Below, in pieces: positions 1 through 23,926 of a stretch of 31,966 bases of DNA. The notes under the pieces are model-generated. The model made no database searches. It had not been told where the DNA came from and worked only from the letters and a program-made list of their open reading frames with translations. A program made the position numbers and the translations under genes. The first letter of the stretch is position 1; every line of letters begins with the position of its first letter. Origin of the DNA: a virus (lineage: Duplodnaviria; Heunggongvirae; Uroviricota; Caudoviricetes; Peduoviridae); IMG/VR virus record IMGVR_UViG_3300029875_000335, one strand, 5' to 3'.

Positions 1-1011
1 TTATAACGTCACTCCGCCTTTTAGTGGATTCAGAGCGACGGCATTTTGCAGATAGTCAGGCGCAAGGTGCGCATAGGCCATCGTCTGCTGAATGCTCGCA
101 TGTCCCAGAATCTGTTGCAGTGCGATTATATTGCCCCCATTCATCATGAAATGGCTTGCGAATGTATGTCGCAGGATGTGGGTTGCCTGATTGGGTGGTA
201 TATCAGGTTTCACTCTGCGTAAAATCCCGCAAAATTTCTCATAATCAACTTTGAATAATTTGGCGCTGGCCTCCTCTTTAACTTTTTTCTCCAGTTCCTC
301 AGAAATCGGCACGGTTCGCTTTTTACCGTTTTTGGTTTTCAGGAAGGTAACCCTGCAATTTGTAATCTGTGCTGGTTTTAGCGTGGCAACTTCCGTCCAT
401 CTTCCTCCAGTGCTCAGACATAAAAGCGCGACAAGTAAGTCATCACCAGCCAAAACATTTAACAGTTTTTCGATTTCTGCTTTTTCCAGGAACGTCATTT
501 CAGGGTTGGCCTCCGCCAGTGGCGGCAGTCCGTGAATTGGGTGTTGCCCGGAAAATTCATCCAATTGAATTAATTTTGTGAACATGCCGGATAATCGGTA
601 TATGTCACGGTTTATCGTTGCGGCACTGATACCATCACGTAGTCGCATGGAACGATAATCCATCAAAGCCCTTTTGCTCATCCTGCTCACTGGTATATCA
701 CCTATGCCGCTGATGGTTTTGAGTAGATGATTAAACTCTTTTGTTCCATGCTCGTGGTTTTGCCCGTGATATTTCCACCAGATGTCCAGCAACTCACTCA
801 AAGTCCGGCGGTCTGCTCGCTGGCCTCCCCATTCTTTCTGACTGGCATTGGCGATTGTGTATCGCTCAAATGCTAGTGCTTCAGCTTTTCTTTCGAATTT
901 CCTGCGGATGCGTTTTCCGTCGCGACCGCGAGGTCTAATGTCCACTTCATAGCGACCATCATCGAGCTTCTTAATTGCCATAAGAAAGCCCTCCGGCGCT
1001 GTATTCACCAT
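1..1011 (-). CDS. int: Tyrosine integrase (P2 Int-like)
   Basis: 336-aa ORF with the C-terminal catalytic region typical of tyrosine recombinases (HILRHTFASHF...LGH...YAH) and an N-terminus MAIKKLDDGRYEVDIRP as I recall for P2 Int. An internal ATG at 981 has a better GGAGG RBS and may be the true start. Confidence 0.9.
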   Translation of the reverse strand: MVNTAPEGFLMAIKKLDDGRYEVDIRPRGRDGKRIRRKFERKAEALAFERYTIANASQKEWGGQRADRRTLSELLDIWWKYHGQNHEHGTKEFNHLLKTISGIGDIPVSRMSKRALMDYRSMRLRDGISAATINRDIYRLSGMFTKLIQLDEFSGQHPIHGLPPLAEANPEMTFLEKAEIEKLLNVLAGDDLLVALLCLSTGGRWTEVATLKPAQITNCRVTFLKTKNGKKRTVPISEELEKKVKEEASAKLFKVDYEKFCGILRRVKPDIPPNQATHILRHTFASHFMMNGGNIIALQQILGHASIQQTMAYAHLAPDYLQNAVALNPLKGGVTL

Positions 1012-1050
1012 CTTGGTAGCAAATGATGAAAATGTAATCTTTATATAGAG

Positions 1051-1344
1051 TTAGCCAATCCTTTTCGCGGAGTGGTTGGACTCTGTTGACTCTGGCCCAA
1101 TGTGCGCGAGAGCCGGTGCGATTTGTCCTGCGTCCGGCGCGGTTTTATCTGTCATAAGCCATAGAGCATATTTTTGGAATGTGGGATGCATAGTGATTTT
1201 TAGCAAAGCTGTGCCACCGGGTTCAAAGTTTCCTCCTTCATATTTTTTAAGTGTACTTAGTGGTAAGTCTATGATTTCACAGAATTTTGATTGGCTTAGC
1301 CCTTCAGCCTCACGCAAGGCCTTAATCTTTTCGCTTAATTTCAT
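1051..1344 (-). CDS. C: Immunity repressor C
   Basis: 97-aa ORF divergent from cox, directly upstream of int as in P2; helix-turn-helix-like N-terminus and the QIAPALAH segment I recall from P2 C. Confidence 0.8.
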   Translation of the reverse strand: MKLSEKIKALREAEGLSQSKFCEIIDLPLSTLKKYEGGNFEPGGTALLKITMHPTFQKYALWLMTDKTAPDAGQIAPALAHIGPESTESNHSAKRIG

Positions 1345-1465
1345 TTGACATGGTGCCTATATAGGGACTAAATTCCCTCAAAACTGGAACCTATATAGGT
1401 TCCATTGATTTGAGAATAAACCAGCGTCTAAACGGTTTTGAGTGGTTTAGAAAGGGCTGGATCCT
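1345..1465. promoter_or_regulatory. Divergent Pc/Pe promoter-operator region of the immunity switch
   Basis: 121-bp intergenic region between divergent C and cox; CCTATATAGG occurs twice (1356..1365 and 1390..1399), the second inside the perfect 18-bp palindrome GGAACCTATATAGGTTCC (1386..1403). Confidence 0.55.
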
Positions 1466-5781: not shown

Positions 5782-5853
5782 ACATCTGATTTAATTTGTT
5801 GCATAATAGTAAAATTGCTGTTTATCTGCATGTGTTAACTATTGATAATTATG

Positions 5854-5881
5854 TTGCTAATAATGTGTGCAAATTTATACT
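5854..5881 (+). promoter_or_regulatory. Putative sigma70 promoter for cargo gene 1
   Basis: TTGCTA, 16-nt spacer, TATACT, then AAGGTG RBS 6 nt upstream of the ATG at 5898. Confidence 0.35.
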
Positions 5882-5897
5882 GAAAAAGGTGAAAACG

Positions 5898-7730
5898 ATG
5901 AATGATATCTTTGTTCTTACAAGGGAAGAGCTTGAAACACTAGATTATAGTGTTTTTATGCATATACCAGTTACATTTCATGCACATAAAATAAAAAAAT
6001 ATCTGGATGGGATTGCTGAATCATCAGAAAACCCCAAAGAGAAAAAATTAGCATCTCTTTTTGGTATGCTATATAGTTTCAATTTGCAAGTTGTTAACAA
6101 CACTCCATCATTTGAACCCCAAATGATTTGGGGTAATAAAAGATCAATATTGCCTGAAGATTTTGATGAGCAGGTGAATGACTGTCTTTTATATGTTTCT
6201 CAAAAAATAACCAATCCATTTTTGTTATCAAGAATATATGATGTTGTTTGGTGTAATAATCGGAAAAATAAAGACGTGGCAATTAAAGCAATTGATTCCT
6301 ATGCTGAAATGCTAAATATAGCAATTGAAAAGCTAATAATAAAAAACGAAAGCATGGATGAAAGTGATTTAAATTGCTTTATTTTTGCTCGTGATTATAT
6401 TGCTAGGGCTTTGCACATTAATAAAATGGTCTACCCTAGAAAATCAGAAGGAAACATGGCGATTAAAAATGCCATTCATTCTCTTTATAGTATTCAAAAT
6501 GAAAGATTAATCTTTGAAGGTTTCAATAATTTGACTTGGTTTATGGTGCGTGATTTTGATGGGTATAATCTGCAGTATGCGGAAAATGCTGAGAAGATGG
6601 CTGAGCAGCATAAAGATAAAAAATATTATGATGCTGTAAAATCACTTTATATGACAAGTGCAGTTATTTATGAAAAAAATGGTGAGTATGAACGTGCCAA
6701 GAGATGTAAACTGGCATCTGCAAATATTACTATTAAAGTTGCAACAGATCGACCTGATAATATGGGTAAGATCTCTTGGTTAAGAACAGCTATCTCTGAA
6801 TTAAGACAGTACGGTGGTGATAGCCAACAGATAGAAGATTTAAAGGAACAACTTGCTAATTTGAGAGAAGAAGTAAGGAGTGAATATGTCACTTTAAGCC
6901 ATTCTATTGATATTAGTGACTTGGTTGCTGAAAGTGAAAAAAAACTGACGGGGCGTTCTTTGCCCGATATATTCAAAGTTTTAATGAGTGAAACACCGAT
7001 TGAAAATATTGAAAGCATGAGGGAACAAGTTTTAAAATTATCAGAAAAAAGTTTATTCTCTAGTTTTGTTGGAACAGAAATTAATGATGAGAGTGGGCGT
7101 AAGATATATACAATCCCGCCGTTGGATAATAAAAAAGATATGAGTGATGATGTTGTTATTGATCAATATCTAAGAAATTTCGAGATTACTCATAAGATTT
7201 TTGTAAACGGTGTCTTTGAACCTGCTCGCTATGTACTTTCTCAAGAACATGGCTTGACGTTGTCAACATTCGTTAAATTGGTTACAACTAGTCCAATTGT
7301 CAAGCCGGAGTTTAGGGAGATTTTTAATTTGGGCTTTTACAAATTATGGCAGGGAGATTACATCAGTGCAGCTTATCTTTTAATACCACAAATGGAAGGT
7401 ATGGTTCGTTATTATTATGAGCTTAGCGGAAAGGATGCTACTAGATATTTGGATAAGGGATTAGAGGAGTCAACAAGTATTTCTCAGCTTCTAGATAAAT
7501 GCAGAGATGATTTGGAAAGTATCTTTTCTAAAAATCTTGTTTTGACTATCGATGTTCTTTTTAACAGAAAGAGTGGGGCAACCTTAAGACATAAATTAGC
7601 ACATGGTAATTTATATACTAATGCTTGTTACGATGAAACAACGACATATGCATGCATCCTGATTTTCTTTCTGTGTGCTTATCCTCTCCTACCATATTTT
7701 GATACTGTTTTTGAACAGGGCTCTGTTTGA
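5898..7730 (+). CDS. AT-rich orphan cargo protein at the tin/old locus; candidate anti-phage protein
   Basis: 610-aa ORF between A and cos, visibly low in GC against the backbone; own promoter and RBS; no Walker A P-loop, so not Old-like; R-H-K-L-A-H (R-x4-H) at residues 564-569 (7587..7604). The upstream TTG at 5796 is an unlikely start. Confidence 0.75.
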   Translation: MNDIFVLTREELETLDYSVFMHIPVTFHAHKIKKYLDGIAESSENPKEKKLASLFGMLYSFNLQVVNNTPSFEPQMIWGNKRSILPEDFDEQVNDCLLYVSQKITNPFLLSRIYDVVWCNNRKNKDVAIKAIDSYAEMLNIAIEKLIIKNESMDESDLNCFIFARDYIARALHINKMVYPRKSEGNMAIKNAIHSLYSIQNERLIFEGFNNLTWFMVRDFDGYNLQYAENAEKMAEQHKDKKYYDAVKSLYMTSAVIYEKNGEYERAKRCKLASANITIKVATDRPDNMGKISWLRTAISELRQYGGDSQQIEDLKEQLANLREEVRSEYVTLSHSIDISDLVAESEKKLTGRSLPDIFKVLMSETPIENIESMREQVLKLSEKSLFSSFVGTEINDESGRKIYTIPPLDNKKDMSDDVVIDQYLRNFEITHKIFVNGVFEPARYVLSQEHGLTLSTFVKLVTTSPIVKPEFREIFNLGFYKLWQGDYISAAYLLIPQMEGMVRYYYELSGKDATRYLDKGLEESTSISQLLDKCRDDLESIFSKNLVLTIDVLFNRKSGATLRHKLAHGNLYTNACYDETTTYACILIFFLCAYPLLPYFDTVFEQGSV

Positions 7731-19742: not shown

Positions 19743-22478
19743 ATGAGCACGAAATTTAAAACCGTTATCACTACTGCCGGAGCCGCGAAGCTGGCAGCCG
19801 CCACTGTCCCCGGCGGGAAAAAAGTAAACCTGTCTGCAATGGCCGTGGGTGACGGTAATGGCAAATTGCCGGTGCCGGATGCCGGTCAGACGAAGCTGGT
19901 GCATGAGGTCTGGCGTCATGCCCTGAATAAAGTCAGCGTGGATAATAAGAATAAAAACTATATCGTGGCTGAACTGGTTGTTCCGCCAGAAGTGGGCGGC
20001 TTCTGGATGCGTGAGCTTGGTCTGTATGACGATGCCGGAACACTGATTGCGGTATCCAACATGGCAGAAAGCTATAAGCCAGAACTGGCTGAAGGCTCCG
20101 GACGTGCGCAGACCTGCCGCATGGTTATTATTCTCAGCAACGTGGCGTCCGTTGAGCTGAGTATTGATGCCAGCACAGTGATGGCGACGCAGGATTACGT
20201 CGATGACAAAATCGCAGAGCATGAGCAGTCCCGCCGCCATCCTGACGCCACGCTGACAGAAAAAGGTTTTACTCAGTTAAGCAGTGCAACAAACAGCACC
20301 AGTGAGTCATTGGCAGCAACGCCAAAAGCGGTCAAGGCAGCAAATGACAACGCAAATTCACGTCTGGCGAAAAATCAGAATGGTGCAGATATCCAGGATA
20401 AATCAGCTTTTCTGGACAATGTTGGCGTTACCAGCCTGACGTTTATGAAAAACAATGGCGAAATGCCGGTTGATGCTGATCTGAATACGTTTGGTCCTGT
20501 TAAGGCTTATTCAGGTATCTGGTCTAAAGCTACATCCACTAACGCGACGGCTGCTAAAAATTTCCCTGAAGACGGTGCAGTCGGTGTACTGGAGGTATTC
20601 AATGGCGGTAATTTTTCAGGAATGCAGCGTTATACCACCAGAACAGGCAATGTTTATATGCGCAACCTTTCTGGCACATGGAATGGTTCAGACGGTCCGT
20701 GGAGTTACTGGCGTCAGGTTCAGTCTGCAACACGCCCCCTGAGCACAACCATTGACCTGAACACGCTCGGAGGCGCAGAGCATCTTGGTTTATGGCGAAA
20801 CAGTAGTGGCTCAATCGCTTCATTTGACCGCAACTATCCGGAAGAAGGAAGTTATGGTCAGGGACTCCTTGAAGTTCTTGAAGGTGGTGGTTACTCGCGA
20901 ACGCAGCGTTACACGACCCGCCGTGGAAATGTTTATGTTCGCTGTCTTTCGGCCTCGTGGGATGCAGAGAACCCACAGTGGGAGCCGTGGTCAAGAGTGG
21001 GCTACCAGTCAGAAAGCCGTTATTACGACGGTGATTTGAATGATGTAACCTCACCAGGTATTTACAGCGTTACAGGTAAAGCGACCAATGGTCCAATACT
21101 GGACGGAAACGGCGTGACAGTCCTCGGTATTCTGGAAGTGTTGAGGCGCTTTGATGGTGTTAACGTATGGCAGCGTTATACAACTGCCGGAACAGGTACA
21201 ACCCTTAAAGGTCGCACGTTTGAGCGCGTTTTTACCGGCAGCTCATGGAGCGAATGGCGGGAAGTTTACACATCTTATTCACTTCCCCTGAATCTGGGTA
21301 TCGGTGGCGCAGTAGCAAAACTCACCAGCCTGGACTGGCAGACATACGATTTTGTGCCGGGCAGTCTGATAACCGTTCGGCTGGATAACATGACCAATAT
21401 TCCCGACGGTATGGACTGGGGCGTCATTGATGGCAACCTGATAAACATCTCAGTCGGTCCGAGTGATGATTCTGGTTCGGGACGCTCAATGCATGTATGG
21501 CGCAGCACTGTAAGTAAAGCCAACTACCGCTTTTTTATGGTGCGTATTTCAGGAAATCCGGGAAGCCGCACGATTACAGCAAGACGAGTACCAATCATTG
21601 ACGAAGCCCAGACATGGGGCGCGAAACAGACATTCAGTGCTGGCCTTTCTGGTGAACTGTCCGGCAATGCGGCGACAGCAACAAAGCTGAAAACAGCCCG
21701 TAAAATTAATAACGTTTCGTTTGATGGAACATCAGATATTAACCTGACGCCGAAAAATATTGGTGCATTTGCTTCAGGAAAAACAGGAGACACCGTTGCG
21801 AATGATAAAGCCGTTGGATGGAACTGGAGTAGCGGAGCCTATAACGCAACTATTGGTGGGGCATCAACGTTAATTCTTCATTTTAATATCGGTGAAGGAA
21901 GTTGCCCCGCCGCCCAGTTCCGCGTTAATTATAAGAACGGCGGTATTTTTTATCGTTCTGCTCGTGACGGTTACGGATTCGAGGCTGACTGGTCTGAGTT
22001 TTATACCACAACGCGAAAACCTACAGCGGGAGATGTCGGTGCACTGCCGTTATCTGGTGGTCAATTGAATGGTGCTCTGGGTATAGGAACATCCAGTGCT
22101 CTTGGCGGTAATTCGATTGTTTTGGGTGATAATGACACGGGCTTTAAACAAAATGGTGATGGTAATCTGGATGTTTATGCTAATAGCGTCCATGTTATGC
22201 GCTTTGTCTCGGGAAGTATTCAAAGTAATAAAACCATAAATATTACGGGGCGTGTTAATCCCTCGGATTACGGTAACTTTGATTCCCGCTATGTGAGAGA
22301 TGTCAGACTTGGCACACGTGTTGTTCAGACCATGCAAAAAGGCGTGATGTATGAAAAATCAGGCCATGTAATCACGGGGCTTGGTATTGTCGGTGAAGTC
22401 GATGGTGATGATCCAGCAGTATTCAGACCAATACAAAAATACATCAATGGCACATGGTATAACGTTGCGCAGGTGTAA
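19743..22478 (+). CDS. H: Tail fibre protein H with a mosaic, repeat-containing distal part
   Basis: 911 aa against about 669 for P2 gpH as I recall; P2-like N-terminus (MSTKFKTVITTAGAAKLAAATVPGGKK...); three internal repeats of the LEV..GG..QRYTT.G..Y.R..S..W module; lower-GC distal third. Confidence 0.85.
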   Translation: MSTKFKTVITTAGAAKLAAATVPGGKKVNLSAMAVGDGNGKLPVPDAGQTKLVHEVWRHALNKVSVDNKNKNYIVAELVVPPEVGGFWMRELGLYDDAGTLIAVSNMAESYKPELAEGSGRAQTCRMVIILSNVASVELSIDASTVMATQDYVDDKIAEHEQSRRHPDATLTEKGFTQLSSATNSTSESLAATPKAVKAANDNANSRLAKNQNGADIQDKSAFLDNVGVTSLTFMKNNGEMPVDADLNTFGPVKAYSGIWSKATSTNATAAKNFPEDGAVGVLEVFNGGNFSGMQRYTTRTGNVYMRNLSGTWNGSDGPWSYWRQVQSATRPLSTTIDLNTLGGAEHLGLWRNSSGSIASFDRNYPEEGSYGQGLLEVLEGGGYSRTQRYTTRRGNVYVRCLSASWDAENPQWEPWSRVGYQSESRYYDGDLNDVTSPGIYSVTGKATNGPILDGNGVTVLGILEVLRRFDGVNVWQRYTTAGTGTTLKGRTFERVFTGSSWSEWREVYTSYSLPLNLGIGGAVAKLTSLDWQTYDFVPGSLITVRLDNMTNIPDGMDWGVIDGNLINISVGPSDDSGSGRSMHVWRSTVSKANYRFFMVRISGNPGSRTITARRVPIIDEAQTWGAKQTFSAGLSGELSGNAATATKLKTARKINNVSFDGTSDINLTPKNIGAFASGKTGDTVANDKAVGWNWSSGAYNATIGGASTLILHFNIGEGSCPAAQFRVNYKNGGIFYRSARDGYGFEADWSEFYTTTRKPTAGDVGALPLSGGQLNGALGIGTSSALGGNSIVLGDNDTGFKQNGDGNLDVYANSVHVMRFVSGSIQSNKTINITGRVNPSDYGNFDSRYVRDVRLGTRVVQTMQKGVMYEKSGHVITGLGIVGEVDGDDPAVFRPIQKYINGTWYNVAQV

Positions 22479-22481
22479 ATT

Positions 22482-23009
22482 ATGCAGCATTTAAAAAACA
22501 TTAAGTCAGGTAATCCAAAAACAAAAGAACAATATCAGCTAACAAAGAATTTTGATGTTATCTGGTTATGGTCCGAAGACGGAAAAAACTGGTATGAGGA
22601 AGTAAGTAATTTTCAGGAAGACACGATAAAGATTGTTTACGATGAAAATAATATTATTGTCGGCATCACCAGAGATGCTTCAACGCTCAACCCTGAAGGT
22701 TTCAGCGTTGTCGAGGTTCCTGATATTACCGCCAACCGACGTGCTGATGACTCAGGGAAATGGATGTTTAAGGATGGTGCCGTGATTAAGCGGATTTATA
22801 CGGCAGACGAACAGCAACAACAGGCAGAATCACAAAAGGCCGCGTTACTTTCCGAAGCGGAAAGCGTTATTCAGCCACTGGAGCGCGCTGTCAGGCTGAA
22901 CATGGCAACAGATGAGGAGCGTAGCCGACTGGAAGCATGGGAACGCTACAGTGTTCTGGTCAGCCGTGTGGATCCTGCAAATCCTGAATGGCCGGAAATG
23001 CCGCAATAA
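22482..23009 (+). CDS. G: Tail fibre assembly chaperone
   Basis: 175 aa directly after H; C-terminal ...[12 protein letters not shown] typical of tail fibre assembly proteins; matches P2 gpG length. Confidence 0.85.
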
Positions 23010-23398: not shown

Positions 23399-23926
23399 AT
23401 GGACTGGAAAGATCTTGCATCAACCGCTGTGTATACAGGTATGACTGATGAAAATGAAAACATATGGGGACGTGTTGATGGGGTTGACGTTGCCTTCATA
23501 GGTGCCTTTCTTACTGCGCACTTGAGCCTTGAAAAGTATATTACTGATTATCTTGGATTAAGATATCCTTCGTTAGCTTGGGGTGATGCAAAACTCACAT
23601 TTTCACAAAAAATAGCTTTAATACAACATGAGCCTGCAAAACCCCCTTATGATGAAATATATTTAAGAATAAAAGACTTTAACAGCATAAGAAATAAAAT
23701 CAGTCATCAATTGAATTATCAGATTACGGATAAAGAAAAAAGTAAGTTTGTGGACTTCTACATGAAGATTACTAAAGCCAGTAAAACTAAACCAAATATT
23801 GATATTGATAACATGGCGGATTTGTTGGATTTTTTCGTATCGATGACAAAATCCTATTTTGCTAGTGCTATTTCTTATTATCACTATAATAAAAAGGTTG
23901 CAGGTAAAAGTAATAAAATTGATTAA
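23399..23926 (+). CDS. AT-rich orphan cargo protein at the Z/fun locus; candidate anti-phage / lysogenic-conversion protein
   Basis: 175-aa ORF in a strongly AT-rich island between G and FI; AAGGA RBS; R-N-K-I-S-H (R-N-x3-H) at residues 98-103 (23690..23707). Confidence 0.75.
   Translation: MDWKDLASTAVYTGMTDENENIWGRVDGVDVAFIGAFLTAHLSLEKYITDYLGLRYPSLAWGDAKLTFSQKIALIQHEPAKPPYDEIYLRIKDFNSIRNKISHQLNYQITDKEKSKFVDFYMKITKASKTKPNIDIDNMADLLDFFVSMTKSYFASAISYYHYNKKVAGKSNKID

Follow-up and report, generated by a model that had tools for sequence, protein, structure and literature searches.

The tail fibre gene H of the P2-like E. coli prophage analysed here encodes a long mosaic fibre of a type already known from the plague-diagnostic phage L-413C. 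The window (31,966 nucleotides, IMG/VR record IMGVR_UViG_3300029875_000335) represents as a whole a P2-like (Peduovirus) prophage extending from integrase to ogr. Over positions 1-25000 it shares 99.8% identity with vB_EcoM-569R9, an induced E. coli phage the record of which places the insertion adjoining cpxP. According to the ORF listing, H encodes a tail fibre of 911 aa, as the initial annotation of this DNA had stated, and the annotated GpH of vB_EcoM-569R9 is 100% identical to it. The gene follows I and precedes G, which is also its place in P2. The ORFs of the window show the order V-W-J-I-H-G of a P2-like late operon, with the gene of a Caudo_TAP chaperone following the fibre, and this order recurs in P2 and in the 99.8%-identical phage record. 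The predicted P2-like N-terminus was confirmed as that of a Peduovirus H protein, with the tail-collar fibre domain PF12571 covering aa 1-151 (Pfam, E=3e-57) and 84% identity to P2 H over aa 1-207. This form of H was found, at a coverage of at least 80%, in 170 of the 5,426 complete genomes of E. coli and in 30 phage records; in 12 complete genomes of E. coli the gene is identical or nearly so. The NCBIfam search returned no match for H, G or the ORF downstream. The regions of H and the adjacent gene G are listed in Table 1.

Table 1. Regions of the tail fibre gene H and the chaperone gene G, with positions in the window.
Feature	Position	Strand	Evidence
Gene H, L-413C-type 911-aa fibre	19743..22478	+	ORF; vB_EcoM-569R9 GpH 100%; L-413C gpH 82%
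aa 1-207, P2-like N-terminal baseplate-attachment part	19743..20363	+	PF12571 aa 1-151; PF03406 aa 170-211
aa 208-242, linker past the P2/non-P2 junction, Mu S-like	20364..20468	+	Mu S alignment; P2 homology stops at aa 207
Knob A, aa 243-332, first pyocin-knob-type module	20469..20738	+	Knob HMM; predicted strands
Knob B, aa 335-426, second module	20745..21020	+	hhalign A-B 99.9%
Knob C, aa 427-515, third and most divergent module	21021..21287	+	hhalign A-C 91.8%, B-C 90.3%
aa 516-640, post-knob beta-rich segment	21288..21662	+	Kept in T-even gp37-like proteins
aa 641-769, Mu S'-like / gp37_C-like segment	21663..22049	+	8ju3; PF12604
aa 770-911 and stop, P2 H / Mu S-like distal tip	22050..22478	+	P2 H and Mu S alignments; variable patch aa 861-900
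Gene G, tail-fibre assembly chaperone	22482..23009	+	PF02413 Caudo_TAP, E=1e-36

The H protein of P2 (NP_046775; NC_001895 12734..14743) comprises 669 aa, which is the length given in the initial annotation, and the fibre of the window is 242 aa longer. Only two segments of the latter align to P2 H, namely aa 1-207 and aa 770-911, which confirms the proposed mosaicism relative to P2. The distal segment and P2 H aa 472-669 share 51% identity, a gap of about 56 aa corresponding to residues that are extra in the distal domain of P2. The middle 562 aa (aa 208-769) have no counterpart in P2 H, the own residues 208-471 of which are unrelated to them, and it is this middle part that sets H apart from P2. 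The search of P2 H with the HMM of the repeated modules described below (the knob HMM) revealed no module, all matches having E>80. Features common to both fibres are the conserved GDNDTGFKQNGDG motif, the last 76 aa (78% identical) and the I-H-G position.

Meanwhile, gpH of phage L-413C (NP_839867, 913 aa) is colinear with H of the window over the full length and 82% identical to it. Both proteins have the same three knobs and the same four-region mosaic, and aa 1-207 and 641-911 are 98-100% identical (99.5% for aa 1-207). All the divergence is confined to the three knobs and the segment following them, where the identity is 47% in knob A, 72% in knob B, 46% in knob C and 74% in the post-knob segment. 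The mosaic structure of L-413C gpH has been published, with 207 N-terminal and 137 C-terminal aa being P2-like (Garcia et al. 2008, as summarised in PMC7460101). H of the window is the same four-region hybrid with a non-P2 middle, and its borders coincide with those published. The same type of H is encoded by the Peduoviruses vB_EcoM-569R9, P24B2, vB_YpM_50, vB_YpM_22, P24C9 and phage 899.

The relatives of the middle part are found in other groups of phages. The T-even gp37-like protein of Shigella phage JK23 is 54.5% identical to H over aa 207-688 and shares the block consisting of the linker, the three knobs and the post-knob segment in the same order. The gp37-like fibre of Escherichia phage ESCO58 shares knob C and the post-knob segment, and related proteins match from knob C on. 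In phage Mu, residues 110-176 of the S protein (5YVQ, 8JU3) align to aa 167-233, residues 321-417 of the S/S' chimera 8JU3 align to aa 672-768 (domain E=6e-49), and the C-terminus of S (5YVQ 426-503) aligns to aa 836-910. The T-even gp37-like and Mu fibres come from unrelated phage families and differ from H in their N-terminal attachment parts and distal tips. The Pfam search also detected a single copy of PF03406 ('phage tail fibre repeat') at aa 170-211 (E=2e-20) and gp37_C (PF12604) at aa 679-754, with 23.2 bits at a cutoff of 22.5; the gp37 trimerization region PF20744 scored 17.8 bits in H, below the gathering cutoff of 21.7. Residues 785-857 match the PDB entry 6f45 (E=2e-4).

The initial annotation had ascribed the distinctive character of H to its distal third, and according to this explanation the distal third and G constitute a recently acquired receptor-binding cassette, which is the source of a specificity other than that of P2. 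The exchange of distal fibre parts and their chaperones between phages is established knowledge. The distal GC content is indeed lower, as had been noted, amounting to 0.47 in aa 641-769 and 0.43 in aa 770-911 against 0.577 in the backbone genes V-W-J-I. The modest identity of aa 770-911 to P2 H, with some 56 aa of P2 wanting, and the variable patch at aa 861-900 also speak for this explanation. However, the GC content of the corresponding parts of P2 is equally low (0.434 against 0.430 in the window for the C-terminus of H, and 0.379 against 0.386 for the 5' half of G), and low distal GC was rejected as a sign of acquisition relative to P2. Since, in addition, G shares 95% identity with its P2 counterpart (99.4% with that of L-413C) and the end of H is well preserved relative to P2, the low GC is of long standing in the H-tip/G module and common to the whole P2 lineage. 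Besides, the greatest difference from P2 falls in the middle 562 aa, and among fibres of the L-413C type the conservation is 97-100% over aa 641-860 and falls to 45-47% in the knobs. Recent acquisition of a distal cassette as the source of the specificity is thus unlikely, and the distal third is not the region distinguishing this fibre. A receptor specificity of H different from that of P2 is itself plausible. As a whole, the interpretation given in the initial annotation is partly supported.

The three modules of the middle part, the borders of which were set with a module HMM, are adjacent and similar in length. The self-BLASTP of the whole protein reported the identity diagonal alone, which is a reporting artefact, and the significance of the repeat was assessed instead by pairwise module alignments with shuffles. 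The Smith-Waterman scores compared with 300 shuffles were 188 for A-B (z=30), 74 for A-C (z=8.4) and 48 for B-C (z=3.9). The profile-profile comparison with hhalign, using profiles that included homologues, gave probabilities from 90.3% to 99.9% (Table 1). Modules A, B and C are homologous to one another, well above chance, and three tandem modules of roughly 90 aa, as had been proposed, are present. The module of about 90 aa starts with a D-L-N motif. Two of the motif starts given earlier, 20583 and 20862, are exact, and the third is at 21126 instead of 21127, one base off. The strings quoted for the modules are conserved, but they represent just the C-terminal two-thirds of each.

As was found by the profile searches, the repeats of H belong to an already known domain, the 'pyocin knob'. 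The profile of the three copies from the window matched the crystal structure of the R1 pyocin fibre (6CL5) with E=4.4e-5, and a profile of 25 non-redundant modules taken from homologues matched 6CL5 (E=9.7e-9), 6CL6 of R2 (2.3e-6), 6CT8 (1.8e-5) and 9b45, the fibre gp47 of Pseudomonas phage Pa193 (8e-4). All four matches of the latter profile fall in the Knob2 region. NCBI names close relatives of H 'pyocin knob domain-containing protein'. The modules of H show the fold of the pyocin knob, an antiparallel beta-sheet of five or six strands with loops between them; in knob A, five beta-strands are predicted, with a pLDDT of the block mostly of 76-89. Tandem arrangement within a fibre, which is a further trait of this domain, is represented by the three adjacent modules. 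The structure model of H is a monomer prediction (pTM 0.32), giving neither the relative placement of the domains nor a trimer. The fibres of the R-type pyocins of P. aeruginosa (PA0620, R1/R2; 6CL5, 6CL6, 6CU2) differ from H in having two knobs and not three, and in possessing a shaft and a C-terminal lectin-like foot in place of the post-knob segment, the Mu S'-like segment and the P2/Mu S-like tip. The sequence identity between the knobs of H and those of pyocins is 16-18% in structural alignments.

The variation of the L-413C-type fibres was examined in eight full-length relatives as the pairwise difference in windows of 20 aa. Two regions, aa 1-200 and aa 641-860, hardly vary, the mean pairwise difference per 20-aa window not exceeding 0.09, and aa 641-769 are 98-100% identical across seven relatives. 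The knobs vary most, each of them on its own, and a second, small variable patch is located at aa 861-900. The identity to knobs A, B and C of the window is 91%, 93% and 74% in P24B2, 78%, 82% and 99% in P24C9, and 78%, 70% and 57% in phage 899. The combination of knobs in the window is unlike that of every sequenced relative except the identical vB_EcoM-569R9. Within the knobs, the predicted loops are more variable than the strands (0.281 against 0.201, p=0.008), although the effect is modest and was obtained from eight related sequences with non-independent positions. The excess is largest in knob C.

It is highly probable that H is an L-413C-type mosaic receptor-binding fibre, which would be trimeric, bind LPS and have its strain specificity tuned by the knob loops and aa 861-900. 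The architecture, the homologies, the fold assignment and the pattern of variation were observed in the analysis; the geometry of the trimer, the binding to LPS and the part of the knobs in specificity are inferred from them and from solved or published fibres. By analogy with the solved pyocin and Mu fibres, H would be a homotrimer, attached to the baseplate by its P2-type N-terminal domain. Each knob would form a small five-stranded beta-sheet, the sheets packing round the threefold axis with the loops directed outward. In the solved pyocin knobs the loops are exposed, whereas the sheets lie buried along the axis of the trimer (PMC6116203). The ligand of the fibre would be the core sugars of LPS; GpH of L-413C attaches to Y. 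pestis cells, with the terminal GlcNAc of the LPS core as its likely receptor (PMC7460101). Chaperone G would help to fold the P2/Mu S-like tip, and the conserved tip may serve as a common anchor and chaperone interface, with the variable knob loops and the patch at aa 861-900 probably tuning strain recognition. In present-day relatives, each knob would be swapped independently by recombination, as a cassette.

A further-reaching suggestion can be made tentatively. The three knobs may be independently exchangeable cassettes, the combination of which sets the LPS specificity at the strain level, aa 641-860 being merely a common core-sugar anchor and chaperone interface. If this is true, what chiefly determines the host range of these P2-like phages would move from the tip to the middle of the fibre, and the identity of the tip in a Y. 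pestis-diagnostic phage and in common E. coli prophages would be explained. The region of greatest diversity in R-type pyocins is Knob2, which was considered the larger determinant of the killing spectrum (PMC6116203). The tip patch at aa 861-900 varies too, however, so that specificity may depend mainly on something other than the knobs, and we regard this suggestion as possible but doubtful.

The knobs might, on the other hand, be purely structural, serving as spacers and trimer-folding nuclei with no role in receptor binding, and their variability would then reflect a relaxed constraint on loops. The higher conservation of the predicted strands and the greater length of the fibre compared with P2 H are in agreement with such a role, and Buth et al. 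2018 proposed that knob-like domains are important in the folding of trimeric fibres, as folding nuclei (PMC6116203). Nevertheless, entire knobs are replaced in otherwise near-identical fibres, as is seen from the identity of knob C in P24C9 and phage 899, and this looks like cassette exchange under selection and not drift. In R-type pyocins, moreover, ligand mimics bind in Knob2, and its diversity tracks the killing spectrum (PMC6116203). A purely structural role of the knobs is, on balance, quite improbable, and a receptor-binding fibre with knob loops involved in specificity remains the preferred reading.

Recent tandem expansion in situ within this prophage lineage, which the adjacency and similar lengths of the three copies could suggest, is refuted by the low identity of the copies (0.50-0.56 in DNA, 35-44% in protein to the first copy), by Tandem Repeats Finder, which detected no repeat in the module region, and by the occurrence of all three modules, likewise ordered, in L-413C H and the T-even gp37-like protein. 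The module repeat exists only at the protein level, and these levels of identity, together with the lack of a Tandem Repeats Finder match, show that the copies are old. The three-copy form of the knobs stems from old duplications common with T-even and other phage fibres. The description of H as expanded is correct in that the protein is longer than P2 H and contains modules absent there, but L-413C H and the T-even protein have the same modules.

The mosaic structure of H, the knob domain and the origin of knobs by tandem duplication have already been published. Thus, H is real but ordinary, since the L-413C-type form has already been described and the repeats represent the known pyocin knob, and the finding opens no new question. 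H of the L-413C type is the receptor-binding protein used in the detection of Y. pestis (L-413C GpH reporters). The L-413C fibres have also been used for retargeting R-type pyocins. The map of constant and variable segments (the knobs and aa 861-900) can aid the design of chimeric fibres, which is of modest practical value, and the prediction of host range for the many E. coli prophages with this fibre (the 170 of 5,426 complete genomes mentioned above).

The strand pattern in the first structure model of H had suggested a cryptic fourth knob at aa 516-640. This candidate is not supported, as the region gave no match to the knob HMM and an hhalign probability against the knobs of at most 0.2%. 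No Pfam match was found for aa 516-640 either, and the PDB profile search yielded chance matches only, e.g., to an RNA-binding protein (E=0.016). The AF2 model of aa 510-650 alone was poor (pLDDT 41). The segment aa 516-640 is conserved with the T-even gp37-like relatives.

The 644-aa ORF that immediately follows replication gene A is probably a prophage-borne anti-phage gene. Its sequence matched PDC-S39, a candidate defence family of PADLOC (E=8.5e-85), as well as the Pfam family DUF7380 (E=5e-39), and a weak match to DUF4209 was also found; the gene is annotated in the near-identical phage record ON470601 solely as a 'DUF4209 domain-containing protein'. The ORF lies inside a low-GC island (GC 0.33-0.38), at the position that holds the accessory genes old/tin in P2.

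Features of the accessory loci and of the tail fibre H (window coordinates)
Feature	Coordinates	Strand	Description
644-aa ORF	5796..7730	+	PDC-S39 and DUF7380 matches
H aa 516-640	21288..21662		beta-rich segment 3' of knob C, the third pyocin-knob module
H aa 861-900	22323..22442		small hypervariable patch close to the tip of the fibre
175-aa ORF	23399..23926	+	between G and FI; phrog_5483 match

The 175-aa ORF, which occupies a known variable spot, may be a moron or a gene for defence. This spot contains Z/fun in P2, and a hypothetical gene different from the 175-aa ORF in the Yersinia phage L-413C. The only match of its product was phrog_5483, a family labelled as being of unknown function (E=6e-60), and the searches of Pfam, NCBIfam and PADLOC yielded no match. 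The stretch holding this ORF has the lowest GC of the region (0.28-0.37).

The segment of tail fibre H that follows the third knob shows conservation across P2-like and T-even fibres, and the LDWQT motif within it is invariant; the Pfam search assigned no family to the segment, and no solved relatives were detected by a sequence-based search. The C-terminal segment (aa 770-911) is 99% identical in the other relatives compared, but just 72% identical in P24C9 and PhiR44_2, where H is 8 aa longer (919 aa).

The record ON470601.1, annotated as a 'partial genome', includes a host flank. Its positions 1..1349, which adjoin window position 1, carry the host genes cpxR and cpxP beside the integrase, and this arrangement in a near-identical phage places the prophage attachment site beside cpxP.
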